Shown: positions 4,246-51,246, counted from the stretch's first letter. The stretch is DNA of 64,000 nt from an uncultured Bacteroidales bacterium (GCA_963823065.1 CAWGJX010000004.1:1280139-1344138); one strand, 5' to 3'. The notes: generated from the sequence alone by a model not told the origin. Numbers and translations: made by a program.

Positions 4246-6835
4246 ATGGCATTAATTATTATGCTGTTTTCGTCATGTACCCCCAATCACCTTATTACAA
4301 ACAATAATTACCTGGTATTAACTGAAAATGCTTTTAATCAACGAAAACAAACAGCAGTTGGCAGAGATTCTGCTCTTTTTACAGTTTTTCATCAGAACCT
4401 TTCAGTAAAACAAACCGAAGCTTTAAAGTTTCTTTACGCTTTCATGCCATTGAGCGATCTGGCTGATTACAATGGAGACTTTTTCCTTGCCAATGTTAAT
4501 GTATCTCTGAAAACACGTTCTCTGGCGAGATGGGGAAAGGAGATCCCTGAAGAAATTTTCCTGCATTATGTATTACCTCCACGAATTAATAATGAGAATC
4601 TTGACTCATTCAGAATAAAATATTATGATGAACTCACAGAGAGAATAAAGGGGAAAGATCTCAGGGAAGCAGCTCTGGAAATCAATCATTGGTGCCATGA
4701 AAAGGTAAGTTATCAGCCATCTGATGACAGGACTTCGGCCCCGATAAGCACGATACTCTCTGCACGTGGCAGGTGCGGTGAAGAATCAACTTTTACAGTT
4801 GCCGCTCTCAGAACAGCAGGCATACCGGCACGACAAGTTTATACTCCACGATGGGCACACACTGATGACAACCATGCCTGGGTCGAAATTTGGTTTAATG
4901 GAGATTGGTACTATATGGGCGCATGCGAACCTGAACCTGTACTTGACCTCGGATGGTTTACTGAACCGGCAAGAAGAGCAATGCTTGTACATACAAAATC
5001 CTTTGGGGCATCAAGTGGAACCGAAGATGTTATAAACAGTAATAATTTCTTCTCCGATATTAACAATCTTAAAAAATATGCCATAACAAAGAAAATCATT
5101 GTTAAGGTGCTTGACGGATCAGATAAGCCCGTAAATAATGCAGAAGTGGAGTACCAGCTTTATAATTATGCCGAGTTTTATCCTCTGGCTGTAGTTCCTA
5201 CCAATGAATCGGGTTTAAGTCAGTTTGAAACGGGGCTGGGCGATTTAGTAATCTGGGCACACAAAGATGAGAATTTTGCTTTTCAGAAAATATCAGTCGG
5301 TGAAACGGATACTTTAGTATTAAAACTGAATAAAGAACTGACATCGAAAAACAGTTTTGATATGGATCTTGAAGTACCTATAGTAAGATCACCACTTCCC
5401 GGTCCACCGCCTGAGCTTGTTGAGCAGAATTCAGAGAGAATAAAGAAAGAGAATATTAATCCGACAGGCATATATAGATTCCTGGATTAAACCATCAGAA
5501 GAAAGACAAATAGCCGAATCTCTTAAATGCGATACAGCAAAAGTGTTGAATGCAATTACCAGAAGTATGGGTAATTATAAAGAAATAATTGAGTTTTTAG
5601 CTGAAACACCTGATTCATTACGAACGCATGCAATGTCTTTGCTGGAAATTCTGACCGATAAGGATATGAGGGATATTAAAAGAAACATCCTGAGAGATCA
5701 TTTATATAATTGTCATCTTCCTGATGAGACTTTACCAGGCAATTTATTTACAGAAGATGTATATAATCCCAGGGTAGCTAATGAAATGTTGGTTCCATGG
5801 AGACATTATTTCTTAACAAAGCTGCCGCCCGAATTGCTGCGGAACGGAAACAGCAATCCGGCATTAATAGTGAAGTATGTCGATGAAAGTATCAGAATTG
5901 ACAAAGAGCAAAATTATTATGGAACACCTTTAAGCCCGATAGGAGTAGATGAACTCAAAATATCAGATAACGCTTCACGTGCAATTTACTTTGTAGCAAT
6001 ATGTCGTAGTCTTGGCATCGCCTCCAGGCTTGAACCAGGACGAAGAATCCCTCAATATTATTTTAATAATAAATGGAATGATGTTTATTTCTCCGGCCAG
6101 AAACAACCTGATCAGAATAAAGGCTTTATAAAACTTTATTCATCTGACACTGATCCGGTTCCTGAATATTATATACAATTTACACTTGCACATTTCGAAG
6201 GCGGGCGATATAATACCCTGGAATATGACTTCAATAGAAAGATTACTGATTTTAAGGACGAAATGGAGCTCCCTCCCGGGAAATATATGCTCGTTACAGG
6301 GAACAGATTAAGTGATAGCAGGATATTATCAAATATCACTTTTTTTGATCTTTCAGAAAATGAACATAAAACTATTGAAGTAAAAATAAGGAAGGATAAA
6401 ACAGAGAAAAAATCAATTGGGAAAATTGACCTGGATAAGATTTATAAGATCGCTGGTAATTCGGATATTTCTCAATCGTGTACAAAACATAATGGGCTGG
6501 TTGTCATATGGATGGATCCGGAGAAAGAACCAACAAAACATATTTTTAATGATCTCCCTAACCTTAAAACGGAATTGGACACGTGGGGTGGAAATTTCAT
6601 ATTTCTACAGCAATCAGAATCCTTTAATATGAAGAATGTCAAAGGACTTCCCGCGAATTCAACTTTTGGAGTTGATAATCAAATGACTGTTTTAAAGAAT
6701 AATGTCAGATTCAATCAGCCAACAGATATTAGTTTACCTTTTGTAGTTGTTGCCGATAAGGCTGGAAATATATATTTCGTTTCGTCTGGTTATAGAATAG
6801 GCATCGGTGAACAGATCTTAAAATATATCAGATAA
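4246..6835 (+). pseudogene. Transglutaminase-like domain lipoprotein, split by a 1-nt indel near 5459-5462 (ORFs 4093-5490 and 5543-6835)
   Basis: Lipoprotein signal MALIIMLFSSC at 4246. Transglutaminase core RGRCGEES...HAWVEIW...D. Frame 2 is open from 5444 and reads RQAYIDSWIKPSEERQIAESL into the second ORF. Confidence 0.7.
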
Positions 6836-6844
6836 TCTCTGTGT

Positions 6845-6868
6845 AGGGAACGGTCGCGACCGTTCCCT
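6845..6868 (+). terminator. Terminator-like perfect palindrome
   Basis: AGGGAACGGTCG/CGACCGTTCCCT lies 10 nt after the stop at 6835. Only a weak T-rich tail follows. Confidence 0.45.
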
Positions 6869-6969
6869 GCATATTATTTCGCGACCATCAATTACATATT
6901 TGTTAACAAATGTTGATATCTGACCTTAAGCTATCACCGTCAGGAAAATAAAATCTCTTATATTTGTTA

Positions 6970-7170
6970 TGTTTTGGTGTTGCAGTGAATTTTATGGCAC
7001 TGCAATGAAAAGGGAATGCGGTTTGAATCCGCAACAGTACCCGCTGCTGTGAAGCCCGGTCCCGCATTGCGCGGGATGATGGTTTTCTGAAATACCTGCC
7101 ACTGTTCCGATGAATTAGAATGGGAAGGCTTCAGAAAACCGGGATAAGTCAGAAGACCTGCCAGATAAAC
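6970..7170 (+). promoter_or_regulatory. Cobalamin (B12) riboswitch
   Basis: Core AAAAGGGAATGCGGTTTGAATCCGCAACAGTACCCGCTGCTGTGAAG, then GCCACTG, then the B12 box AGTCAGAAGACCTGCC at 7147-7162. It lies directly upstream of a TonB-dependent receptor gene. Confidence 0.85.
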
Positions 7171-7248
7171 CTAATATTCAATGCTTTCGGGAAAAAAAGC
7201 GCCGGATCATAACAGATTCCCACGTAAATACCCAGTAAACGCTGAATA

Positions 7249-9216
7249 TTGAACATACGGGCTGTATATGTAATTGGTAAAACCCTTTATGAAGTGACCT
7301 GCCATCGAAATATCATACCCGGTCTGAGAAATATTGTATTATATTTTACTGTACTTCTTATTACTATGCCCCTGCTTGGCCAGCGAATAAAAGGTAACGA
7401 TACGATTAAAATCAAAGAGGTTGTTATCAGCAGGAAAATTAACGCTACCGATGACGCAGGATTTAAAAAGTCTGTTATAGATACTACAATTCTAAAAGAA
7501 TACAGCAACAGAACTCTTTCGGAGATGCTTTCAGGCACCTCAACGATCTTTTTGAAAAGTTATGGTATGGGCGGAACTGCTACCCCCTCATTCCGGGGTA
7601 CAAGTGCCAGTCAGACACTGTTAGAATGGAACGGGATCAAAATAAATAACCCCATGTTAGGACAATCCGATCTTTCCTTAATACCTGTTGGTCTTATTGA
7701 TGATGTCCAGGTTTTATATGGTGGAGCTTCTATGGTTTTAAATAATGGAGGTATTGGTGGGGCAATCAATCTTGAGAATAAGCCTGTATGGAAAAAAGGA
7801 ATAACGGCTTCAATGAACGCCGGGATGGGCAGCTTTGGAGAATATTCCGGGTTTGGGAAAATAAAAATCGGAAACCTGCACTTTCAATCGGTTACAAAAG
7901 CTTTTTTCCTGACTTCAGAAAATGATTTCAAATTTCTTAACTCCGAATCAATATTACAAACCAGAAATAATAGTCAGGTAAGTCAGAAAGAATTGACACA
8001 GGAGGTCTATTTAAAGAAAGATGATAACATAGCATCAGCCAGAATATGGTACCAGTCATCAAACAGACATCTCCCTCCGGCTTTGTTGTCGCAGGATTTG
8101 ATTGAAAAACAATTCGATGAATCTTTAAGGGTAATGATTGATGACAATCTGAGAAAAGGGAAAAACAATTACTTTGTTACAGGAGCATTTTTATCTGACA
8201 GATTAAATTATACAAGCCAGGTAGCTAAGATCGATTCAAAAAACCTTTCTGAAACATTCATTATTAAGGCTGGAAGAGAGACCCGGTTTAGTGAATATAC
8301 AAAGTTTAAAATCACTGTGGAAAATGAATTAAGTACAGTCAATTCGAATAATTACAGTCATTTTCAGGAACGAAATAATGCTACAATGACTGCTTATCTT
8401 GAAAGGGCTTGCATTGGCAGGTTTGGACTCACTGTTCTTTTGCGTGAAATATTGAACAGACAGACACTTCTATTACCTGATTTTTCAACAGGACTTCAAT
8501 TCAGGCTTATCAACTACAGTGATTATTATTTGAAAGCAAATTTCTCAAGAAATTCACGAATTCCAACAATGAATGATCTGTTCTGGCCTTATGTTGGTAA
8601 TCCGGATCTGAAAAACGAATATTCGTACAATTCAGAGCTCACCTATGAAATGAATCAAAAAGCTTCGTCCCGTTTGAATATTAAGTCGGATCTCGCGGTT
8701 TTTCACAATTCTATTAAGGACATGATACTCTGGCATTCGGAAGGAAATACCCTCAAAGTTGATAATATCAGCAGTGTAAAAACTGCAGGTCTTGAATCAA
8801 GCCTCTCCATGATCTATTCAATAAATAAATTCAGTGCACAGCTAAATGCCGGATATTCTTTCACAAAGGCAACTAATTTATCCACAGGAAAGCAGCTTAT
8901 TTATGTTCCTGAAAATCAGGCTACCGGGGCAATCAGGTTAGCATTCAGAAATTTTTATTCTTTATTTGATGCAAACCTTGTCGGAATCAGATACCTTACA
9001 ACAGACAACTCAGACAATCTTCCAGGCCAGGACTATTTGCCAACTTATATCCTTAATAACATAATGGTTGGCATGAAATTGCCTATAAATGACACCTCAA
9101 TCGATATCGATTTTAGTATTGAAAATCTTTTTGATATAAATTATCAGTCAATTTCGCAATACCCCTTGCCAGGGCGTTCATACCTTATTAAAATTCTCTT
9201 TCAGCTTATAAAGTAA
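7249..9216 (+). CDS. btuB: TonB-dependent receptor, BtuB-like
   Basis: Plug domain motifs (LSEMLSGTSTIFLKSYG, PSFRGTSASQTLLEWNGIKIN), a beta-barrel and a C-terminal aromatic end. It is controlled by the B12 riboswitch. The true start is probably downstream of the TTG at 7249. Confidence 0.8.
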   Translation: MNIRAVYVIGKTLYEVTCHRNIIPGLRNIVLYFTVLLITMPLLGQRIKGNDTIKIKEVVISRKINATDDAGFKKSVIDTTILKEYSNRTLSEMLSGTSTIFLKSYGMGGTATPSFRGTSASQTLLEWNGIKINNPMLGQSDLSLIPVGLIDDVQVLYGGASMVLNNGGIGGAINLENKPVWKKGITASMNAGMGSFGEYSGFGKIKIGNLHFQSVTKAFFLTSENDFKFLNSESILQTRNNSQVSQKELTQEVYLKKDDNIASARIWYQSSNRHLPPALLSQDLIEKQFDESLRVMIDDNLRKGKNNYFVTGAFLSDRLNYTSQVAKIDSKNLSETFIIKAGRETRFSEYTKFKITVENELSTVNSNNYSHFQERNNATMTAYLERACIGRFGLTVLLREILNRQTLLLPDFSTGLQFRLINYSDYYLKANFSRNSRIPTMNDLFWPYVGNPDLKNEYSYNSELTYEMNQKASSRLNIKSDLAVFHNSIKDMILWHSEGNTLKVDNISSVKTAGLESSLSMIYSINKFSAQLNAGYSFTKATNLSTGKQLIYVPENQATGAIRLAFRNFYSLFDANLVGIRYLTTDNSDNLPGQDYLPTYILNNIMVGMKLPINDTSIDIDFSIENLFDINYQSISQYPLPGRSYLIKILFQLIK

Positions 9217-42071: not shown

Positions 42072-43224
42072 TAGTGCCAGAATGCCAATTTACAGGGATG
42101 CAGGCTTTGAATTATACGATGCCGAAACAACTGCCATGGCTTTCAGAAAAGAGGCAGAGCATCACAGGGAGCCTGATAACTATATTTACTCACGTTATCG
42201 TAATCCCACTGTAGTATCTGCAGAAGAGGAAATTATGAAGCTTGAAGGATGCAACTGGGCTCTTTTGACGCAATCGGGTATGTCCGCGATTGACACAGCA
42301 CTATCAATTTTCCAATCGGGGAAAAAGATCAGACCCTGGCTGTTCTTTACTGAAATATATGGTGGAACTATTTCATTTATAGAGTCTGTGCTGAAGAACC
42401 GGAGAGGTCTTGATATACAATATTTTACACCTGATAACAGTAATTATGATCTTGCTAAACTCGAACATGTACTAGCCGATTTAAAACCTGAACTGCTCTA
42501 TATTGAGGCAATTTCCAATCCTATGCTTATTGTTGCGGATGTTGAAAACATATTGAGAATAGCCAGAAAGCATGATGTAAAGGTTATAATTGATAATACA
42601 TTCGCGACTCCATATCTTTACAAACCATTAGTTGCCGGCGTAGATCTTGTTGTTCACAGCGTAACAAAATACTTTTCAGGACATGGCAACCTTTCAGCAG
42701 GTGTTGTTTGCGGGAATGATTTGAAAATGATGCAATCTGCAATAGAATACAGAAAATTTGTCGGACATATGATATCTCCTGATGATGCCTACAGATTGCA
42801 GACTCAGATACTTACATTTGAACTCAGATTCTCCCGACAATGCGATAACGCATCAAAGCTTGCAGCTTACCTTAAAAATATTTCTGTCATTAAAGAAATT
42901 TGGTTTCCGGGAATGAGCGATCATCCTACATATTCTATTGCAGAGAAATTATTTGGTGGCAAAGGATATGGCGGAATGATAACCTTCAATTTTGACGGTA
43001 AGGATAAAGATCAGAAAAGGAGCAGGAGAGATAAATTTATTAAGCTGGTTTCTGAAAAGATAAAGCTGATACCTACTCTTGGAGATGCGCATACAATTCT
43101 TATGCCTGTTGAAGCAGTATGGGGAACAAAATATCCTGAACCCGGAATGATAAGGTTGTCTGTTGGATTTGAAGAGTATGAGGAACTGCAGCAAACAATA
43201 ACAAAAGCATTGAAAGTAATTTAA
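42052..43224 (+). CDS. Cys/Met-metabolism PLP-dependent enzyme (cystathionine gamma-synthase / beta-lyase / sulfhydrylase family)
   Basis: YSRYRNPT and the PLP-lysine motif HSVTKYFSGHG. It overlaps the upstream gene by 20 nt. An alternative start is M at 42082. Confidence 0.8.
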   Translation: MKRKEVNSARMPIYRDAGFELYDAETTAMAFRKEAEHHREPDNYIYSRYRNPTVVSAEEEIMKLEGCNWALLTQSGMSAIDTALSIFQSGKKIRPWLFFTEIYGGTISFIESVLKNRRGLDIQYFTPDNSNYDLAKLEHVLADLKPELLYIEAISNPMLIVADVENILRIARKHDVKVIIDNTFATPYLYKPLVAGVDLVVHSVTKYFSGHGNLSAGVVCGNDLKMMQSAIEYRKFVGHMISPDDAYRLQTQILTFELRFSRQCDNASKLAAYLKNISVIKEIWFPGMSDHPTYSIAEKLFGGKGYGGMITFNFDGKDKDQKRSRRDKFIKLVSEKIKLIPTLGDAHTILMPVEAVWGTKYPEPGMIRLSVGFEEYEELQQTITKALKVI

Positions 43225-43362
43225 ACCGCAAAGCATGGATCCCCTGCCGCTACGCGGCTGTCCCCTTAAAGGGGGACCAACTCGGTGTATGTGATGAATT
43301 TATTGAAGTACTGAGAATTAGCCCCCCTTTAGGGGGGAAGGGGGGCGCGACCTTACAAGGTT
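43224..43362. repeat. Family-A GC-hairpin repeat, copy A2, with flanking CAAAG/CTTTG-type arms
   Basis: AACCGCAAAG..CCCCTGCCGCTACGCGGCTGTCCCCTTAAAGGGGGAC..GATGAATTTATT..CCCCCCTTTAGGGGGG..ACCTTACAAGGTT. Confidence 0.75.
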
Positions 43363-43375
43363 AATGGATTTCATT

Positions 43376-44041
43376 TTATTCCCAGTTTATTGGTTCAATT
43401 CCATGCTCTTTCAGATAAGTATTGCATTTACTGAAATGATGGTTTCCGAAAAATCCTCGTGAAGCTGAAAGAGGAGAGGGGTGAACCGATTCCAGCACCA
43501 GGTGTCTTGACCTGTCGATTGTTTCTCCTTTTTTTTGCGCATATGCACCCCAAAGGAAAAAAACTATATTTTGTTTTTCGTTATTTAAAATACTGATCGC
43601 ATTATCGGTAAATTGTTCCCATCCTTTTTTCTGATGAGAACCTGCCTGATGTGCGCGTACCGTAAGCGTTGCATTAAGGAGCAACACACCCTGATCCGCC
43701 CATCTTTCAAGGTTACCGCTTAATGGTCTTTGAATACCTGTATCTAACGCGATTTCTTTAAAAATGTTTATCAGGCTCGGTGGAAAACCAACACCGTCTC
43801 TTACAGAAAAGCATAATCCGTGTGCCTGACCCGGACCATGGTATGGATCCTGACCAATAATGACAGCTTTGACCCTATCGAACGGACAAAGATTGAAGGC
43901 ATTAAAGATCAGGCTGCCAGGAGGATAAATAGTATTTTTAATGTACTCTTCCTTTACAAAATCAGCAAGTTTAAGAAAGTATTCTTTTTCAAATTCTCCC
44001 TGCAGTCTTGATTTCCATGTAGGTTCAATTTTGACATCCAT
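43376..44041 (-). CDS. ung: Uracil-DNA glycosylase
   Basis: GQDPYHGPGQAHGLCFSV and HPSPLSA motifs, 221 aa. Confidence 0.9.
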   Translation of the reverse strand: MDVKIEPTWKSRLQGEFEKEYFLKLADFVKEEYIKNTIYPPGSLIFNAFNLCPFDRVKAVIIGQDPYHGPGQAHGLCFSVRDGVGFPPSLINIFKEIALDTGIQRPLSGNLERWADQGVLLLNATLTVRAHQAGSHQKKGWEQFTDNAISILNNEKQNIVFFLWGAYAQKKGETIDRSRHLVLESVHPSPLSASRGFFGNHHFSKCNTYLKEHGIEPINWE

Positions 44042-44107
44042 CGGATAATTTATTTCACGCTAAATTAATTTAATTATCCTTTTGAGAGCAGAACCAAGAT
44101 CTCATTT

Positions 44108-44263
44108 TCGCCGTAGGCGATAAACTATTGTAGAAAGGAGATTTAAAATGAACATTTTTCCTCGTAGAGGATAAACATTTACGCATAACCAAAATTCTTT
44201 AACCTCCACGAGGTAAAAAGAAATCCATTCCAATATTCTTCAATAGTTTATGCCCTACGGGCA
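44108..44263. repeat. Cluster of four REP-like mini-hairpins (GTAG/CTAC-type loops) in a 2+2 inverted arrangement
   Basis: Hairpins TCGCCGTAGGCGA, TCCTCGTAGAGGA, ACCTCCACGAGGT and TGCCCTACGGGCA. Three of the four carry an adjacent ATAAAC(T/A)ATT tail, and the outer pair forms CGATAAACTATTG / CAATAGTTTATG. Confidence 0.65.
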
Positions 44264-44322
44264 ATTTATCTAAATCCGGATCTTTAATTGGTTTATTTAA
44301 TTATTTTAACTTTACAACAAAA

Positions 44323-44772
44323 ATGGCAACAGAAACGGAACGTAAATTTCTTGTAAAGGGCGAATTCATCCATCTGGCAATCAGAGATATAAAAATAATA
44401 CAGTCATATCTGATTAAAGACCATGAAAAGACAATCAGAATTCGTATTGCTGAAGATAAAGCATACCTTACAATAAAAACCAGGCCTGCTTATGATACGA
44501 TAACCAGAAATGAATGGGAGTTTCAGATACCTGTTAAGGATGCGGAAGAAATGATGAAGGTCTGTATTCCCGGTAAAATTGTAAAGACACGATATATTAT
44601 ATCATCAGGAAAGCATAAAATTGAAGTAGATGTATTTCATGAAAAAAATGAAGGACTGGTAATTGCAGAGATAGAACTCGCTTCAGATGACGAAGAATAT
44701 TTAAAACCCGACTGGTTGGGAGAGGAAGTAACCGGACAGCCTCAGTATTATAATGCAAATCTGATAAAATAA
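44323..44772 (+). CDS. CYTH domain protein (triphosphate tunnel metalloenzyme)
   Basis: N-terminal ETERKFLV signature, 149 aa. Confidence 0.8.
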   Translation: MATETERKFLVKGEFIHLAIRDIKIIQSYLIKDHEKTIRIRIAEDKAYLTIKTRPAYDTITRNEWEFQIPVKDAEEMMKVCIPGKIVKTRYIISSGKHKIEVDVFHEKNEGLVIAEIELASDDEEYLKPDWLGEEVTGQPQYYNANLIK

Positions 44773-44773
44773 G

Positions 44774-45142
44774 CTACTTTTTGAAAACAAAATAAACTGC
44801 AAGAATTAAAAACACAAATCCAATCAGATGATTCATGCGGAACTGTTCATTTTTAAAAACAAGTAGCGTAAATCCAGTAAAAACCATTATTGATATAACC
44901 TCCTGAATTACCTTTAATTCAATAAGGGAAAATGGTCCGCCGTTTGCCCTGAATCCAATCCTGTTGGCAGGTACCTGCAATGAGTACTCAAAAAAAGCAA
45001 TCCCCCAGCTCAATAATATTACAGCAAACAAGCTGAGACTCTCAAACCTGCTCATTGTTCTTAATTTGAGATGACCATACCAGGCGATCGTCATGAAGGT
45101 ATTAGACATTATCAGCAATAAAACAGTGTATAATCCTTTCAT
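44774..45142 (-). CDS. Small DMT-superfamily membrane protein (DUF486)
   Basis: 122 aa, four helices, with the string FMTIAWYGHLK that I recall as typical of DUF486. Confidence 0.65.
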   Translation of the reverse strand: MKGLYTVLLLIMSNTFMTIAWYGHLKLRTMSRFESLSLFAVILLSWGIAFFEYSLQVPANRIGFRANGGPFSLIELKVIQEVISIMVFTGFTLLVFKNEQFRMNHLIGFVFLILAVYFVFKK

Positions 45143-45180
45143 TTCGGGTCAGGATTTTTAAAGGCAAATGGAATAAAAAT

Positions 45181-46143
45181 CTAATTTAAATCATCAATGA
45201 TGTGCTGGAGGACCTCTGTAAACTGATAACCGGCTTCTTTAGTGGCAGCAACGAAACCACCATCAGGAGAAATACATGGATTGCCATTAATTTCAATAAC
45301 GAATACATTGTCGGAGCTGTCGGTCCTGACGTCTACTCTTGCATAGCCTCTCAGCCCAAATAATTGCCAGCAGGAGAGTGCTGCATTCTTCAGGTTTGCT
45401 AAAAGTTTGGGATTGAGTTTATTTCCCGGAAATTCACGGACGGTATTGATATATTCAAAACTATCCATTTCCCATTTGGCTTTGAAATCGATGATTTTTG
45501 GCTTATCATCGGTGTAGTTTACAAATACTATTTCAGCCGGTGGTAAAACCTGCGGGCCATCCTTTCCGGCTAAAACGCTGATATTAAATTCTCTGCCATC
45601 AACAAAATCTTCAATAAACCAATGAGCATCATCCAGTCCCTTGATTTTAGCTTCAGAAACAGAATTCCATTCAAAAACCGATTCACTGGTTATCCCGAGT
45701 GATCCGTCCTCCCAAATTGGTTTGACTATATATTTTCTTCCCTGTTTAAGCAGATTATATTGTGACGGCAGGTACGATGCCGGGTTATTAATCCCGGCAT
45801 TTTTCATCATTTTACTACAGATTGTCTTATTGCTTGTCAGAAAGATCGCTTCAAGCGAATTTCCCGAATATGGAATCGCATATAAATTCAGAAGGGCTGG
45901 TACAAAATAGATTAGCTCACCTTTATTGTTAATTGATTCAACCAGGTTAAAAACAAAATCAGGTTTTTCGTCGGCAAGGAGCTTAATCTCCGACATAAAC
46001 TTTTCAGTTATGCCTTTTCTGTAGACTGATACACCAAGATCTTTAAGATGCTTCTCAATATGTGCTACCTGATCAAGAACATCAAGTTCGTCAGCCAATG
46101 CATCCTTGCCGGGTTCATTATAAATAATACAACACCTCCTCAT
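45181..46143 (-). CDS. ATP-grasp ligase, D-Ala-D-Ala-ligase-like (paralog 2)
   Basis: ATP-grasp C-terminal half (FIEDFVDGREFNISVL, GYARVDVRTD, VIEINGNPCIS). Last gene of the kamA operon. Confidence 0.75.
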   Translation of the reverse strand: MRRCCIIYNEPGKDALADELDVLDQVAHIEKHLKDLGVSVYRKGITEKFMSEIKLLADEKPDFVFNLVESINNKGELIYFVPALLNLYAIPYSGNSLEAIFLTSNKTICSKMMKNAGINNPASYLPSQYNLLKQGRKYIVKPIWEDGSLGITSESVFEWNSVSEAKIKGLDDAHWFIEDFVDGREFNISVLAGKDGPQVLPPAEIVFVNYTDDKPKIIDFKAKWEMDSFEYINTVREFPGNKLNPKLLANLKNAALSCWQLFGLRGYARVDVRTDSSDNVFVIEINGNPCISPDGGFVAATKEAGYQFTEVLQHIIDDLN

Positions 46144-46180
46144 TTTCCCTCCACTCCGTTCTAAATATATTATTAAAGGA

Positions 46181-47152
46181 CTATAAAAGTCCGTTTCGTT
46201 TTATTGCTGCTTTCATTATCATTTCCATGAGGGTCTGATATTCAATACCTGACATCCTGGATAATATAGGAAGATCTGAATGTATAGGATTTAACCCTGC
46301 CAGTGGATTTGCCTCAATAAAACATATTTTTCCATTACGGTCGGCTTTCAGATCTACTCTGCCTGCATCTACTGCATCCAGAGCCTTCCATGCTCCAAGC
46401 GCCACCGATTTGCATTCATCAACTATATCATCTCCCAGTGGTTTGTAAGTACAGTAATTCTGATAATTTTCCTTCACTTCAACAGAATAAGGCAGATTAT
46501 CAGCACAAATTACTTCCATACCCCCAATTGCAACAGCATCGTGGCCATAGCCTACTACACCGACAGTAAATTCTCTTCCCGGAAGATATTCTTCAACCAG
46601 TGCCGGCTGATGGAACTCAGAAAGAATCCATTCAACCATTTTTCTCAGGTCGGGGCCGGAATTAACTAAACTTTTTTCAGTGATTCCTTTACCAGTTCCT
46701 TCAGAAACTGGTTTCACAAAGAGCGGATAATTCAGATTGCAATTATCCAGATCCTGAATTTTAGATATTAGTATACCCGGACTGACAGGAACTCCTGAGG
46801 AGGCAACAACAAGTTTGGCCAGGTGTTTATTAAGTGACAAACCCATTATCACAGGACCACTGAATACGTATGGTATCTTATACTGATCCAGAATGGCGGG
46901 CACAACTGATTCCCTTCCATCACCGTATAACCCTTCTGCAATATTAAAGATAATATCCCATCTTTTCCCTGAAGCAAGGGCTTCGATCAGTTGAAAGGTA
47001 TTTCCAACAGGTTCAGTTTCATAACCCATCAGATTAAGTGAGTTCTCAAGAGCATCGATGGTTTCCTGCTTATCAAATTCGGCAGTTTCATCCATAGAAT
47101 ACCCACGATCAGTATACCATGACCGGAGATCAAAAGTTAAACCAACTTTCAT
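46181..47152 (-). CDS. ATP-grasp ligase, D-Ala-D-Ala-ligase-like (paralog 1)
   Basis: PLFVKPVSEGTGKGI, VEEYLPGREFTVGVVG, GRVDLKADRNGKICFIEANPLAGL. Confidence 0.75.
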   Translation of the reverse strand: MKVGLTFDLRSWYTDRGYSMDETAEFDKQETIDALENSLNLMGYETEPVGNTFQLIEALASGKRWDIIFNIAEGLYGDGRESVVPAILDQYKIPYVFSGPVIMGLSLNKHLAKLVVASSGVPVSPGILISKIQDLDNCNLNYPLFVKPVSEGTGKGITEKSLVNSGPDLRKMVEWILSEFHQPALVEEYLPGREFTVGVVGYGHDAVAIGGMEVICADNLPYSVEVKENYQNYCTYKPLGDDIVDECKSVALGAWKALDAVDAGRVDLKADRNGKICFIEANPLAGLNPIHSDLPILSRMSGIEYQTLMEMIMKAAIKRNGLL

Positions 47153-47159
47153 TATTATC

Positions 47160-48401
47160 CTATTTTTCCGGGTATTCGCACAATACCCCTTTGTAATTAC
47201 GCAATACTATACGTTCATCAGTATGTTCCACTACATAATCAGGAAGCAAGGGGATTTTTCCGCCGCCGCCTGGAGCGTCAACGACAAACGTTGGTACAGC
47301 ATAACCACTGGTAAAGCCTCTTAGTCCTTTTATTATTTCAAGACCTTTTTTGACAGTAGTTCTGAAATGACCCGATCCGGGGATCAGATCACATTGATAT
47401 AGATAATATGGTCTTACTCTGATTTTTAGTAATTTATGCATAAGCAGCTTCATTGTAGGTACATTATCGTTGATGCCTTTTAGAAGAACTGTCTGACTTC
47501 CGAGAGGGAATCCTCCGTCTGCCAGTTTGTTACATGCTTTTGCACATTCATCCGTAATCTCATCTGGATGTGAAAAATGCAGACTGATGAAAAGCGGATG
47601 GTATTTCCTCAAAATAGTTATCAGGTTGTCAGTTATTCTCTGAGGAAGAACCACAGGAACCCTTGTTCCTATTCTTATTATTTCGACATGCTCAATACGC
47701 CGGATATTTGAAAGAATATAATCGAGAGTCTCATCATTTAATGTGAGAGGATCACCTCCGCTGATGAGTACATCACGTACTTCCTTATGCGTGGCAATAT
47801 AATTAAAAGCTTTTTCAAAATCCTGTCTTCCAAGTTTATCGAGTCGTCCGACAGAATGTGAACGTGTGCAATATCTGCAATAATTTGAGCATACTTGTGT
47901 AACTGTAAACAGAACCCTGTCAGGGTATCTATGTACAATTCCTTTTACTGGTGAGAAAGATTTTTCATGCAGGGGATCAGATTGCTCGCTACTTGTTTCA
48001 AGTAATTCTTCAACAACCGGAACTACATTACGACGTAATGGATTCGACGGTTTGGTGTTGTAAATTAAAGAAGCAAAATAGGGAGTGATTCTGAGAGGTA
48101 AGCGACCTTTTAGATTATTAATAGCCAGAATCTCCTTTTCGGATAATTTCATGATTTTCTTTAGATCTTCGATGCTTGTGAGAGCATTTCGAAGTTGCCA
48201 TTTCCAATCATTCCAGGAATCGATAGTCGTTAGGGGGAAGAAGCGGCTCATAAAGTCCGAACTTCGGTTGCTAACTAACGGAATTGGGATTTCGTTTTGC
48301 GAAAAAATCATGGTTTTCGCGCCAGGCTCTTCATCAGAAGAACAACCCACGAGGCGACTCTCTCCATGGAGCGTCGTAGCCTCATTATTGTTAGCGTTCA
48401 T
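47160..48401 (-). CDS. kamA: Lysine 2,3-aminomutase family radical SAM enzyme (KamA/AblA-like)
   Basis: CSNYCRYCTRS (CxxxCxxC), ISGGDPL, YQCDL and VVDAPGGGGK. The first 30-50 N-terminal residues are of uncertain reality. Confidence 0.85.
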   Translation of the reverse strand: MNANNNEATTLHGESRLVGCSSDEEPGAKTMIFSQNEIPIPLVSNRSSDFMSRFFPLTTIDSWNDWKWQLRNALTSIEDLKKIMKLSEKEILAINNLKGRLPLRITPYFASLIYNTKPSNPLRRNVVPVVEELLETSSEQSDPLHEKSFSPVKGIVHRYPDRVLFTVTQVCSNYCRYCTRSHSVGRLDKLGRQDFEKAFNYIATHKEVRDVLISGGDPLTLNDETLDYILSNIRRIEHVEIIRIGTRVPVVLPQRITDNLITILRKYHPLFISLHFSHPDEITDECAKACNKLADGGFPLGSQTVLLKGINDNVPTMKLLMHKLLKIRVRPYYLYQCDLIPGSGHFRTTVKKGLEIIKGLRGFTSGYAVPTFVVDAPGGGGKIPLLPDYVVEHTDERIVLRNYKGVLCEYPEK

Positions 48402-48839
48402 AACAGATGATGAAATTTCTTCACCTTTTCTTTTTTAAGTTTGTTTGTTTTAAATTAGTACTGTTTAATTAAAATAGTTGTCACGAAAGTATATAATCTA
48501 TAAATACATTGTATCATTCGGTAATCATAAATATTAACACTATTGGCATTTTATTAACAACCCTTCTTTTTTGGTTTGCCGTTCAGCTTTGCAAATCGCA
48601 TAGTAATAGCATTTTACATAAATTTTAAAACAAAAATAATACTAGAATAAATCTGGTAATATTTTGTGTTTATTTTTACAAATCATTTTAAATATCATCA
48701 ATACGTCAGGTGGAAAAAATAATTTCACGATTAATGAAATTCAAACAGGTAAATTGTCAGTGCCCTTTAATAAATATGTTCATTAAATGACTTTCATTAG
48801 TATGTCAGAACACTCACTTTTTGATATTGTTCATTTCCT

Positions 48840-49280
48840 TCATTCAGACTCACCTGAATCTCTTCTCATTTTTTTAATATTTCCCCTTACTCGTTTTCCT
48901 TCCAGTCTTTTGATCTTTGAAGACAAGGTAGGTTTTGTAGAACGTCGTATTTTTTGAACTGTAAGGGCTTTTGAAATAAGATCATAAAATTTTTCGGTCA
49001 CGACGATCTTATTCATAAGCTGTGTCCTTTCGGATTGTGAGACAAGCAATAATTCTCCGTCCTTTGTAATCTTGTTTTTCAACTTCGTGAAGATCAGTTG
49101 TTTTTCTTCTTCAGAAAAAATTGAAGTTGAAATAAGACTAAACCTCAATTCAACTTTGGTACTTACTTTATTCACATTCTGACCACCAGGACCGCTGCTT
49201 CTTGAAGTTGAAAAAGTAAATTCTTTTTCAATATTCCGGTTTTTAAGTTCTTCAGAATTCATAACATACGTTTTTGTCAC
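48840..49280 (-). CDS. arfB: Alternative ribosome-rescue factor ArfB (peptidyl-tRNA hydrolase, GGQ)
   Basis: GPGGQNVNKVSTKVELRF and a basic C-terminal tail, 146 aa. Confidence 0.85.
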   Translation of the reverse strand: MTKTYVMNSEELKNRNIEKEFTFSTSRSSGPGGQNVNKVSTKVELRFSLISTSIFSEEEKQLIFTKLKNKITKDGELLLVSQSERTQLMNKIVVTEKFYDLISKALTVQKIRRSTKPTLSSKIKRLEGKRVRGNIKKMRRDSGESE

Positions 49281-50179
49281 ACAAAGAATAGAGCTACGCC
49301 GGCAACACTTACAATAGCTCCCAATACTTCCGGAATTGTTACTTTCTCTTTAAAGAAAACGACAGCAGGAATTATAATAAATACAGGAACAAGAGCCATA
49401 ATTGTTGATGCAATCCCTGCTTCAGTGTACTTAATAGCTATAAGTGAAAATGAAACACCCAGAAATGGTCCGAAAAACGCACCTAAACTAGTCAGAACCA
49501 TCCCTGAATTATTTTTAGTAGCTTTCATTACACTTACCCATCTTGCCAAAAATGTTACCAGAATTGTATATCCGAATATACCAGCGATTATTCGTATTTG
49601 TGTCGCGGCAAATGGATCATAATTTTTCATCCCGAATTTACTTAGAACAAGTCCAAGTGCCTGTCCAACTGCTCCTCCGAAAGCGTAAAGGATTCCTCTT
49701 GGAGCAAGTTTTAATGACAATTTCTCTCCTTTCCCGGCACGACTGAATATTGCCATTACGATACCGGCAAAAGTAAGTGTCATCCCCAGGTAATGAAACA
49801 AAGTAAGCTTTTCGCCCAAAATTAAATAACTGAAAAATGCGGTAACAGGAGGGACTAGTGTCATAATAAGCATTGAAAACCTTGAACCTATCATTGTATA
49901 GGATTTGAACAGAAACAGATCTCCAAATACAAACCCTACCAGGCCCGATAATGATAACCATATCCAGTTCTCTGCACTTGCATCGACAGGCAAGACGAAA
50001 CCTCTTCGTATAAGTGTGAATATGCTAAGAAATACAAAACCCAGAACAAGTCTGAGAATATTTACAGCTATGGATCCAATCTTATTACTTGCTGCCTCAA
50101 ATGAAAGTGATGTGATTGTCCAGAAAAACGCAGTCAGTAATGCTGCGAATTCGCCCAGGTGATGATTGAAAAAATCCAT
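49277..50179 (-). CDS. DMT family transporter (EamA-type, 10 TMS)
   Basis: Two EamA-like halves, 300 aa. It overlaps the arfB start by 4 nt. Confidence 0.8.
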   Translation of the reverse strand: MDFFNHHLGEFAALLTAFFWTITSLSFEAASNKIGSIAVNILRLVLGFVFLSIFTLIRRGFVLPVDASAENWIWLSLSGLVGFVFGDLFLFKSYTMIGSRFSMLIMTLVPPVTAFFSYLILGEKLTLFHYLGMTLTFAGIVMAIFSRAGKGEKLSLKLAPRGILYAFGGAVGQALGLVLSKFGMKNYDPFAATQIRIIAGIFGYTILVTFLARWVSVMKATKNNSGMVLTSLGAFFGPFLGVSFSLIAIKYTEAGIASTIMALVPVFIIIPAVVFFKEKVTIPEVLGAIVSVAGVALFFV

Positions 50180-50270
50180 AGTAATTTCAGGAAGTAGTAA
50201 GTATCTTTAAAGGGCGTAAATTTAGAATTATTTGTGATAATTACCCTTATGGACATAAATGAACATTTTT

Positions 50271-50445
50271 AACCGCAAAGTACGCTAAGAAAGCACACCC
50301 CCTGCCGCTGCGCGGCTGTCCCCCTAAAAGGGGACTAAAACTGTTCTTTAAAGGGAATTTCATTAGGTCATAAAACATAAAGCCCCCCCTTGGGAGGGTT
50401 GGGGGGTGCGACCTTTGTAAAAACCTTTGTGACTTTTGAGGTTAA
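50271..50445. repeat. Family-A GC-hairpin repeat, copy A3, a complete composite with both outer arms
   Basis: AACCGCAAAGTACGCTAAGAAAGCACA + CCCCCTGCCGCTGCGCGGCTGTCCCCCTAAAAGGGGAC ... CCCCCCCTTGGGAGGG..GGGGGGTGCG + ACCTTTGTAAAAACCTTTGTGACTTTTGAGGTT. Confidence 0.75.
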
Positions 50446-50499
50446 TTGATTTATTTTTTGATTTTAATAAGTATTGTAAATTCTAAACAGATTAATAAA

Positions 50500-51246
50500 A
50501 TGTATACTAATCTCAAAGAACACTTTATCAGTCAATGGAAGAAGTATTTTAACAATGCTGATCTTCCAATAACATTCTTTTATACAGATGACCCCGGAGA
50601 TACTACTGTCTTCAAGACTTCTGAAAAACGAAGCTGCATTATATGTGAGCTCCAAAAAGTAAGATCAGGACAATCACTTGCATTTAATTATGATTCAGTT
50701 AAATGCGGAGGAGCAAAGCGTTATATGGGATTTGCTGAGACAGTACGTCCGAATTTTGAGTATTTTCTTTCATGCGGTATTGAGAACAAGATGGAAGGAG
50801 AGAGGTATATACAGACACCACAGCTCGTCCTGGATCTGACGAAGAAACAAAAGAAGATGAATATTCCCGGTAAATATATAGTGTTTAAACGGTGGGATAA
50901 ACTGACTGTAAATGAGACTCCGGATGTTGTTATTTTCTTTTCAACCGCGGATGTTCTTTCCGGACTCTTTACTCTTGCAAACTTTGATCAGTCTGAACCG
51001 GATAGTACTATTGCACCATTTGGCCCGGGTTGCGGATCAATAGTTTATTTCCCTTTTATTGAAAAGGACTCCGAACGGCCGAGAGCTGTGCTCGGGCTAT
51101 TCGATGTCTCAGCCCGGCCATGTGTTCAGGAGGGGATACTTACCTTTTCGGTTCCGATGATCAAATTCAAAAAAATGATCAGCTATATGGATGAGAGTTT
51201 CCTTATTACTGATTCCTGGAAGAAAGTTCAGAAAAGAATTAAATAG
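50500..51246 (+). CDS. DUF169 family protein
   Basis: Start MYTNLKEHF. The CELQKVRSGQSLAFNYDSVKCGGAKRYMGF region resembles my recollection of DUF169 (COG2043). Confidence 0.55.
   Translation: MYTNLKEHFISQWKKYFNNADLPITFFYTDDPGDTTVFKTSEKRSCIICELQKVRSGQSLAFNYDSVKCGGAKRYMGFAETVRPNFEYFLSCGIENKMEGERYIQTPQLVLDLTKKQKKMNIPGKYIVFKRWDKLTVNETPDVVIFFSTADVLSGLFTLANFDQSEPDSTIAPFGPGCGSIVYFPFIEKDSERPRAVLGLFDVSARPCVQEGILTFSVPMIKFKKMISYMDESFLITDSWKKVQKRIK

Follow-up and report, generated by a model that had tools for sequence, protein, structure and literature searches.

What does a bacterium make with a lysine 2,3-aminomutase whose gene is followed at once by genes for two enzymes that resemble D-alanine-D-alanine ligase (Ddl)? 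The question is raised by a 64,000-nucleotide stretch of DNA from an uncultured Bacteroidales bacterium (GCA_963823065.1 CAWGJX010000004.1:1280139-1344138; this whole stretch is referred to as the window), in which three genes on the minus strand encode KamA, a lysine 2,3-aminomutase of 413 amino acids that combines radical S-adenosylmethionine (SAM) and pyridoxal 5'-phosphate (PLP) chemistry (47160-48401), and two Ddl-derived ATP-grasp amide ligases that we call AG1 (323 amino acids; 46181-47152) and AG2 (320 amino acids and more divergent; 45181-46143). A first-pass annotation made from the sequence had described these genes as co-directional and separated by gaps of 7 and 37 nucleotides, and the coordinates (47153-47159 between kamA and AG1, 46144-46180 between AG1 and AG2) as well as the strand agree with this description. 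On balance, we favor the view that they belong to a module which builds a small, N-acetylated amide or peptide containing beta-lysine in the cytoplasm.

KamA passes the KamA-family hidden Markov model (HMM) TIGR00238 with 373.9 bits over a cut-off of 199.2, and comparison with HMMs of the 2,3-aminomutase families, as had been proposed with the first-pass annotation, identified the lysine 2,3-aminomutase AblA as its best equivalog (TIGR03820; 497.8 bits, slightly below the cut-off of 525.4), with lower scores for glutamate 2,3-aminomutase (443.6 bits), arginine 2,3-aminomutase (404.6 bits), and EpmB (255.7 bits). In an alignment with the Clostridium lysine 2,3-aminomutase of PDB entry 2A5H (E 8.5e-134), the radical-SAM motif CxxxCxxC is present as CSNYCRYC at C125/C129/C132, and KamA retains the alpha-carboxylate arginine R134, the PLP-binding lysine K337, and the two aspartates D293 (in YQCDL) and D330 (in VVDAPGGGGK). 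We take these two aspartates to be the sites at which the Clostridium enzyme binds the epsilon-ammonium group of lysine, and Ruzicka and Frey reportedly described in 2007 that they are replaced in glutamate 2,3-aminomutase. Each of the named residues, from the cysteines to K337, is invariant in 67/67 module-linked KamAs from other genomes. Since the residues that are established to govern substrate choice are kept, the diagnostic positions show KamA as a predicted lysine-specific enzyme that would form beta-lysine from free L-lysine, which upholds the earlier call of lysine rather than glutamate specificity. KamA is short at its C-terminus, where only 56 of the 127 LAM_C positions are present, and is extended at its N-terminus by about 58 amino acids that are specific to the clade; a genome-wide search found no second KamA.

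Both ligases carry the Pfam domain Dala_Dala_lig_C, and their nearest relatives in sequence and fold are Ddl and VanA. The AlphaFold model of AG1 has the Ddl fold (predicted local distance difference test score, pLDDT, of 89.7) with template modeling (TM) scores of 0.77-0.81 to Ddl at 21-24% identity, and that of AG2 (pLDDT 93.4) reaches TM scores of 0.78-0.82 at 18-21% identity. They are indeed as divergent as initially thought, staying far below the cut-offs of the Ddl models NF002378 (124.1 bits for AG1 and 103.7 bits for AG2 versus 243) and TIGR01205 (100.7 and 90.2 bits, respectively, versus 245.65), while a bona fide ddl that passes its cut-off with 279.6 bits is encoded elsewhere in the genome (G000:C4:111009-111959). 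In the tree, AG1 branches as the sister of true Ddl, to which it is closer than AG2, and the two are distinct, anciently diverged ligases.

To compare the pockets, 76 AG1 and 66 AG2 family members were aligned with E. coli DdlB and the Ddl of this genome, using DdlB numbering that is nominal for residues 1-69 and follows the computed alignment for residues 70-302. The ATP/Mg2+ and acyl-phosphate residues K97, K144, E180, E187, K215, R255, D257, E270, and N272 are kept in both families, and the set that forms the D-alanine site of Ddl (the E15-S150-Y216 triad, H63, and S281/L282) is altered in both. The AG1 encoded in the window has E at H63, T at S150, E at Y216, and D at L282, and its AG2 has G at S150, W at Y216, G-G at S281-L282, and C at G276. 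Across the AG1 family, H63 is replaced by E in 76/76 members, Y216 by W (66) or E (9), and L282 by C (59) or D (9), with S281 retained; in the AG2 family, Y216 is W in 66/66 and L282 is G in 65/66, S150 has become A or G, G276 is D (57) or C (9), and H280 is mostly D. Because the ATP-grasp residues are intact, the D-alanine residues changed, and a separate ddl present, we predict that AG1 and AG2 are active but ligate substrates different from D-alanine. By the same scores and residues and the presence of that separate ddl, they do not cluster with bona fide Ddl or cyanophycin-type enzymes, as the first-pass annotation had envisaged they might; the cyanophycin synthetase model matches AG1 over 114 positions only and with 35.4 bits compared to a cut-off of 877. 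The PylC model TIGR03909 matches neither ligase at E values up to 0.01, which rules them out as members of the PylC family. A third Ddl-like ATP-grasp domain of the genome is part of a 642-amino-acid fusion with a class I SAM methyltransferase (L188:5325-7253, plus strand; G000:C1 at ~0.726 Mb) and shares 26-29% identity with AG1 and AG2 at 123 bits on Ddl models.

The gene neighborhood links these ligases to KamA. KamA-AG1-AG2 was found in the same order at 80/80 loci of Bacteroidales metagenome-assembled genomes (MAGs) that were retrieved with AG1, and the trio recurs in other phyla in another order, so that the survey suggested by the first-pass annotation came out in favor of a conserved association. 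AG1 is present in 89 of the 151 genomes of the window's family, covering 38/39 genomes in its own genus and 9/20 genera. Across a phylum sample of 401 genomes, 77 carry the module, 76 of these in another class (Ignavibacteria) and none in the other Bacteroidia families of this sample. The order in Ignavibacteria, including Ignavibacterium album, is recG followed by AG1-AG2-GNAT-KamA, where GNAT denotes a small acetyltransferase. Scanning with an AG1 profile retrieved at least 591 relatives, and the best 80, used for locus mapping, come from Aminicenantes, Kryptonia, Planctomycetota, Verrucomicrobiota, Kiritimatiellia, Acidobacteriota, Desulfuromonadales, and Ignavibacteria, with Melioribacter roseus, Rosettibacter primus, and Stygiobacter electus among the carriers. 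Though these loci were retrieved with AG1 alone, tblastn mapping revealed AG1-AG2-GNAT-KamA at 67/80 of them, representing at least eight phyla, and recG adjoins the module in most of the 80 as well as in 12/12 Ignavibacteria-type loci with flanks examined. Among the 150 best cluster representatives, there are 41 ligase-ligase fusions and 3 fusions of KamA with AG1, in both orders and with an architecture confirmed by Pfam; the E values of this representative search do not permit counting the family, as true Ddl passes 1e-30 too. Because the neighborhood survives rearrangement and these Rosetta-stone fusions exist, the association of KamA with the ligases goes far beyond chance and is a functional tie, and KamA, AG1, AG2, and a small GNAT are the usual set of four genes of a module that is widespread among anaerobes of many phyla. 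A full-text literature search found no description of this module of KamA and ATP-grasp enzymes or of its product, and the literature on N-acetyl-beta-lysine and ablA in green sulfur bacteria provided only background on ablA regulation.

The fourth gene changes what had been proposed for this locus. The usual GNAT of the module has about 160 amino acids and is encoded between AG2 and DMT_6, a gene for a small membrane protein, in 33/72 Bacteroidales loci. At the window locus, where the order is KamA-AG1-AG2-DMT_6, there is no GNAT, and the sole homolog in this genome lies 546 kb away (G000:C4:1873883-1874359) and is 41-48% identical to the in-cluster copies. Among 15 genomes tested, all nine without an in-cluster GNAT have this remote type (9/9; 74-96% identical to that of the window's genome) and a second copy is missing from all six that have the GNAT in the cluster (6/6), which amounts to one module-type GNAT per genome, in-cluster or remote, in 15/15. 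With KamA being 89% identical between the same genomes and the GNAT only 41%, the in-cluster gene seems to have been replaced by a diverged homolog rather than simply moved. The first-pass annotation had noted the lack of a GNAT, AblB, or EpmA as partner, and this stands insofar as the GNAT is missing from the locus and the other two from the genome: the AblB model TIGR03827 has no match in this genome (93% complete) while controls matched in six genomes, two of them over the cut-off, and a genome-wide genX search for EpmA gave at best 233.5 bits, below the cut-off of 286.9, for a frame of 570 amino acids whose length suggests lysyl-tRNA synthetase. The pathway free of acetyltransferase that it had drawn from this has to be given up, given that the conserved module includes a small GNAT and that this genome keeps one at a distance. 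Since such a GNAT belongs to the conserved module, the product is probably N-acetylated, and its synthesis may have a connection with Abl-type chemistry. The GNAT family matches the structural-genomics entry PDB 2R7H ("putative D-alanine N-acetyltransferase") with an E value of 1.3e-51, followed by RimI and the archaeal/eukaryotic N-alpha-acetyltransferases (Naa). The D-alanine in the name of 2R7H probably derives from mislabeled Ddl-like neighbors. The remote GNAT gene (L187:6881-7360, minus strand) adjoins a gene for a 980-amino-acid protein (L187:7607-10549, minus strand; G000:C4 at ~1.874 Mb) with a C-terminal Peptidase_M28 part and no match over its first 700 amino acids, but this protein was dropped as a member of the system because it stands beside the remote GNAT in only 6/9 genomes.

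The module of the window also differs from most others in other ways. In the tree, the window's AG1 and AG2 fall into their respective families, where they are found on long parallel branches (1.8 and 1.6 changes per site) together with those of their Bacteroidales relatives and of genome G389; all of these share the KamA-AG1-AG2-(GNAT) arrangement as well as, in AG1, the minority residues T150, G151, E216, H280, and D282. Canonical AG1 proteins have an acidic Ser/Pro-rich insertion before the equivalent of E15, which the AG1 of the window's clade does not have. The clade's KamA instead carries the motif GCSSDEEPGA at residues 19-28 (codons at 48318-48347, minus strand), which reaches at least 95% conservation across the 70 distinct KamAs of the clade alignment, between variable flanks, and the KamA of G389 has GEKDEPPSS at the equivalent position. 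A comparable (D/E)(D/E)EPP is found in the AG1 insertions of Desulfuromonadales, Aminicenantes, Verrucomicrobiota, Kiritimatiellia, and Acidobacteria, while Ignavibacteria-type insertions are without EPP motif. Judged by these alignments, the acidic-proline motif has switched its host protein, being borne by AG1 in canonical modules and by KamA in the window's clade; it could serve for docking or for more than that. With its different gene order, AG1 pocket, and KamA extension, the window's clade is a divergent subtype of the module. A further locus with the order AG1-AG2-(180-amino-acid GNAT-like)-KamA was found in a low-GC, very divergent genome (L178, MAG "bacterium CTOTU29499", 4884-8553); its AG1 has an N-terminal KLEEEPPS motif, and both ligase trees place its AG1 and AG2 with the window's clade, albeit on long branches.

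In the pathway that we favor, KamA would first convert free L-lysine into beta-lysine, as its diagnostic residues indicate, and beta-lysine would be the shared substrate of what follows. Each of the two Ddl-derived ligases would then form one amide bond via an acyl-phosphate. AG1 most plausibly activates the carboxylate of beta-lysine and joins it to an amino-acid-like amine, because the carboxylate-binding position S281 is kept and the invariant Glu63 has been gained. For AG2, acylation of a cationic amine (an amino group of beta-lysine, for example) is the most plausible reaction, because the carboxylate cradle of S281/L282 is lost and acidic residues have been gained there in most lineages. 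In a fourth step, the GNAT, which is the distantly encoded one in this genome, would acetylate a free amino group, and DMT_6 may serve to transport this product, or a precursor of it, through the membrane. As to physiology, the compound most likely acts as a small solute that protects from stress or otherwise reaches high abundance. Several points weigh against this pathway and role. The substrates of AG1 and AG2 are assigned solely from residue patterns relative to E. coli DdlB, and no member of the module has a product, substrate, or phenotype on record. The patchy distribution over the genera of the family and the lack of the module in the other sampled Bacteroidia families speak for a dispensable function, the hosts live in freshwater peat with no obvious need for an osmolyte, and the presence of GNAT and DMT_6 at the locus varies. 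A pathway of free small molecules also does not explain why KamA or AG1 bears a conserved acidic motif, and the RNA contigs that document expression (see below) come from relatives of 90-95% identity, not from this strain.

Some of the same residues would also suit a polymer. If the ligases polymerized beta-lysine or joined a polyamine, an oligo-beta-lysine or polyamine-like polycation would result, with its charge or toxicity tuned by the GNAT; streptothricin, which has an epsilon-linked beta-lysine chain, offers a chemical precedent for such an oligomer. The invariant extra Glu63 of AG1 fits cationic substrates, as do the change of S281/L282 to A/S-G in AG2 and its gain of D276 and D280 in most lineages, and both the frequent ligase-ligase fusions and the acidic loop or tail conserved on module proteins are consistent with this idea. 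However, two anciently diverged ligases better fit two different bonds than a homopolymer, and the module comes without a conserved hydrolase or primer gene, so that we regard an oligomeric product as unlikely.

It is similarly improbable that lysine or beta-lysine is ligated to a Glu or Lys side chain of a protein, for instance in the DEEP(P/G) motif of KamA or AG1 or at Lys34 of elongation factor P (EF-P). Such a modification would account for the conservation of GCSSDEEPGA inside a variable tail, for the appearance of the motif on KamA just where AG1 has no insertion, and for the KamA-AG1 fusions, and the nearest characterized relatives of the GNAT acetylate protein N-termini. The genome, which is without EpmA, also encodes an EF-P (G000:C1:878975-879520) whose VKPGKGPAF loop has a lysine at the modification site. 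But KamA keeps a pocket for free lysine, with both aspartates for the epsilon-ammonium group and the PLP lysine for the alpha-amine, no releasing hydrolase is conserved, and a transporter gene accompanies the module here. The motif itself is missing from the Ignavibacteria-type AG1 insertions, and acidic or proline-rich linkers can be mere docking motifs. Most Bacteroidia have EF-P yet no module, and EF-P was considered an unlikely target because of the absence of the module from the other Bacteroidia families sampled. A bolder version takes the acidic-proline motif as the working end, with one ATP-grasp ligase attaching lysine or beta-lysine to a motif glutamate and the chemistry taking place on an enzyme-borne handle; this handle could be a self-priming start of a beta-lysine chain or a built-in carrier like LysW. 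We consider this a long shot which, if true, would mean a protein-templated route of a kind that Ddl-type ligases are not known to use.

Beta-lysine is also a building block of streptothricin, viomycin, and similar antibiotics, and the streptothricin resistance enzymes are small GNATs. The module could by this token make a secreted antimetabolite or antibiotic, with the GNAT for self-resistance and DMT_6 as exporter, and both the small membrane protein encoded directly after the module in 48/72 Bacteroidales loci and the patchy spread within the family would be in line with this. Its vertical conservation beside recG and its presence in 77/401 phylum genomes look more like core physiology, though, and there are no genes for tailoring, regulation, or resistance transporters. 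In addition, 13/72 Bacteroidales loci have neither GNAT nor DMT_6, and the best Bacteroidales relatives have lost the in-cluster GNAT but kept the ligases, making a secreted bioactive compound quite doubtful. HMM and Pfam scans revealed no signatures of nonribosomal peptide synthetases or of fermentation partners at the locus. A search of the genome for KamD (PF09043) gave no match, but the control genomes gave none either. That AG1 and AG2 are spare enzymes of the Ddl or cyanophycin type which merely lie next to a KamA for lysine fermentation or beta-lysine accumulation is very hard to believe, even with source annotations that label them D-alanine-D-alanine ligase and Ddl structures as their best fold matches, since it is at odds with the sub-cut-off Ddl scores, the replaced D-alanine residues, the true ddl elsewhere, and the marginal cyanophycin synthetase match (35 bits), and is contradicted by synteny across phyla despite changed gene order and by the KamA-ligase fusions.

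The module is expressed in situ, as seen in contigs from relatives. Contigs of close relatives (90-95% identity) from peat and soil metatranscriptomes cover kamA, bridge the boundaries between kamA and AG1 (47090-48159; 46967-47309) and between AG1 and AG2 (45921-46203), and reach DMT_6. In four metatranscriptome runs, contig depth over 48108-48414, i.e., the first ~300 nucleotides of kamA, exceeds that of the rest of the operon 3- to 10-fold, and several contigs break near 48106. This excess could reflect a stable 5' fragment, premature termination, or a larger number of relatives mapping there. Comparison with 29 relatives shows 80-90% conservation, much like that of coding sequence, over about 150 nucleotides upstream of kamA, and none further upstream. 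The conserved control region (48484-48559, minus strand), defined by comparison with these relatives, contains a direct repeat TGTTAATA-N12-TGTTAATA (48559-48532), a palindrome ATACAATGTAT (48514-48504), and a Bacteroidetes-type -7 box TACTTTCG (48491-48484), all on the minus strand and each conserved in the 29 relatives; the repeat and the palindrome are candidate operator-like elements. An Rfam scan of 43000-50500 at E values up to 1 returned chance eukaryotic matches only and no riboswitch, and the 5' untranslated region of kamA folds no better than shuffled sequences (z -0.63), i.e., there is no structured leader.

On the far side of this region, arfB and an EamA transporter gene are located upstream of kamA at a distance of 438 nucleotides, and nothing plausible as a small carrier open reading frame was found between arfB and kamA. 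Downstream, the first-pass annotation had pointed to a small DMT membrane protein and a CYTH protein as possible associates, of which the former fits and the latter does not. The DMT_6 (DUF486) gene (122 amino acids; 44774-45142, minus strand; PF04342, E 6e-42) is co-directional with kamA-AG1-AG2 and begins 38 nucleotides downstream of AG2. It is absent from Ignavibacteria-type modules with flanks examined and can be seen as an optional accessory gene of the module that encodes a possible transporter. The CYTH gene (44323-44772) is outside of the kamA operon and a matter of local synteny only, because it is read from the plus strand, in convergent orientation to the DMT_6 gene. The stop codons of these two genes are separated by 1 base, and a terminator scan detected no terminator between them. 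PADLOC defense models gave no match at the locus.

Knowing the product would add another fate of beta-lysine to N-acetyl-beta-lysine, EF-P modification, and antibiotics, and it would correct a widespread misannotation, as the module is routinely labeled as lysine 2,3-aminomutase plus D-alanine-D-alanine ligase. Possibly, a major solute or polycation of anaerobes that abound in sediment and peat would also come to light. What the window contributes, from a large peat-dwelling family of Bacteroidales, is a subtype with a changed pocket, a displaced acetyltransferase, and the motif on a different host protein. Cultured carriers such as Ignavibacterium album, Melioribacter roseus, and Desulfuromonas make the question directly testable.

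No single known system among AblA/AblB, PylB/PylC, and Ddl is matched as a whole, and each resembles a different side of the module. Ddl and VanA are closest in fold, sharing the three-domain ATP-grasp architecture and the catalytic residues, but H63, S150, Y216, and L282 are replaced in the module ligases, which also have no cell-wall gene context. In the EpmA/EpmB system, a KamA paralog similarly provides beta-lysine that is then ligated to an amine, but the EpmB model gives the KamA of the window only 255.7 bits (cut-off 369.3), and the module ligases are ATP-grasp enzymes rather than paralogs of lysyl-tRNA synthetase. The pathways of stand-alone L-amino-acid ligases and paired ATP-grasp ligases (RizA/RizB, BacD, and BL00235, as well as MysC/MysD for mycosporine-like amino acids) likewise employ successive ATP-grasp enzymes that make a small amide without ribosome or nonribosomal peptide synthetase, and BL00235 (3VOT) is the first non-Ddl match of the AG1 profile (E 2e-14). 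They are nonetheless distant in sequence, come without aminomutase, and form taxonomically narrow clusters compared to the many phyla seen here, so that the comparison with RizA/RizB made in the first-pass annotation is reduced to an analogy of logic. As a pathway, AblA/AblB comes closest, which produces N-epsilon-acetyl-beta-lysine among methanogens and green sulfur bacteria and has a counterpart in kamA-yodP of Bacillus. It also pairs an AblA-type lysine 2,3-aminomutase with a GNAT for a cytoplasmic beta-lysine derivative, but the module adds two ATP-grasp ligases, its GNAT of ~160 amino acids is of the 2R7H type and RimI-like instead of fitting the 266-position AblB model, and its KamA here stays below the AblA cut-off and mostly lacks LAM_C. 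The closest system in logic is PylB/PylC, in which a radical-SAM enzyme rearranges lysine to a non-standard amino acid before a Ddl-like ATP-grasp ligase couples the carboxylate of the latter to an amine. Unlike that system, the module has two ligases and a GNAT with no PylD, and its KamA is a PLP-dependent 2,3-aminomutase and not a methylornithine synthase, but both would follow the same logic of rearranging lysine first and ligating it afterwards.

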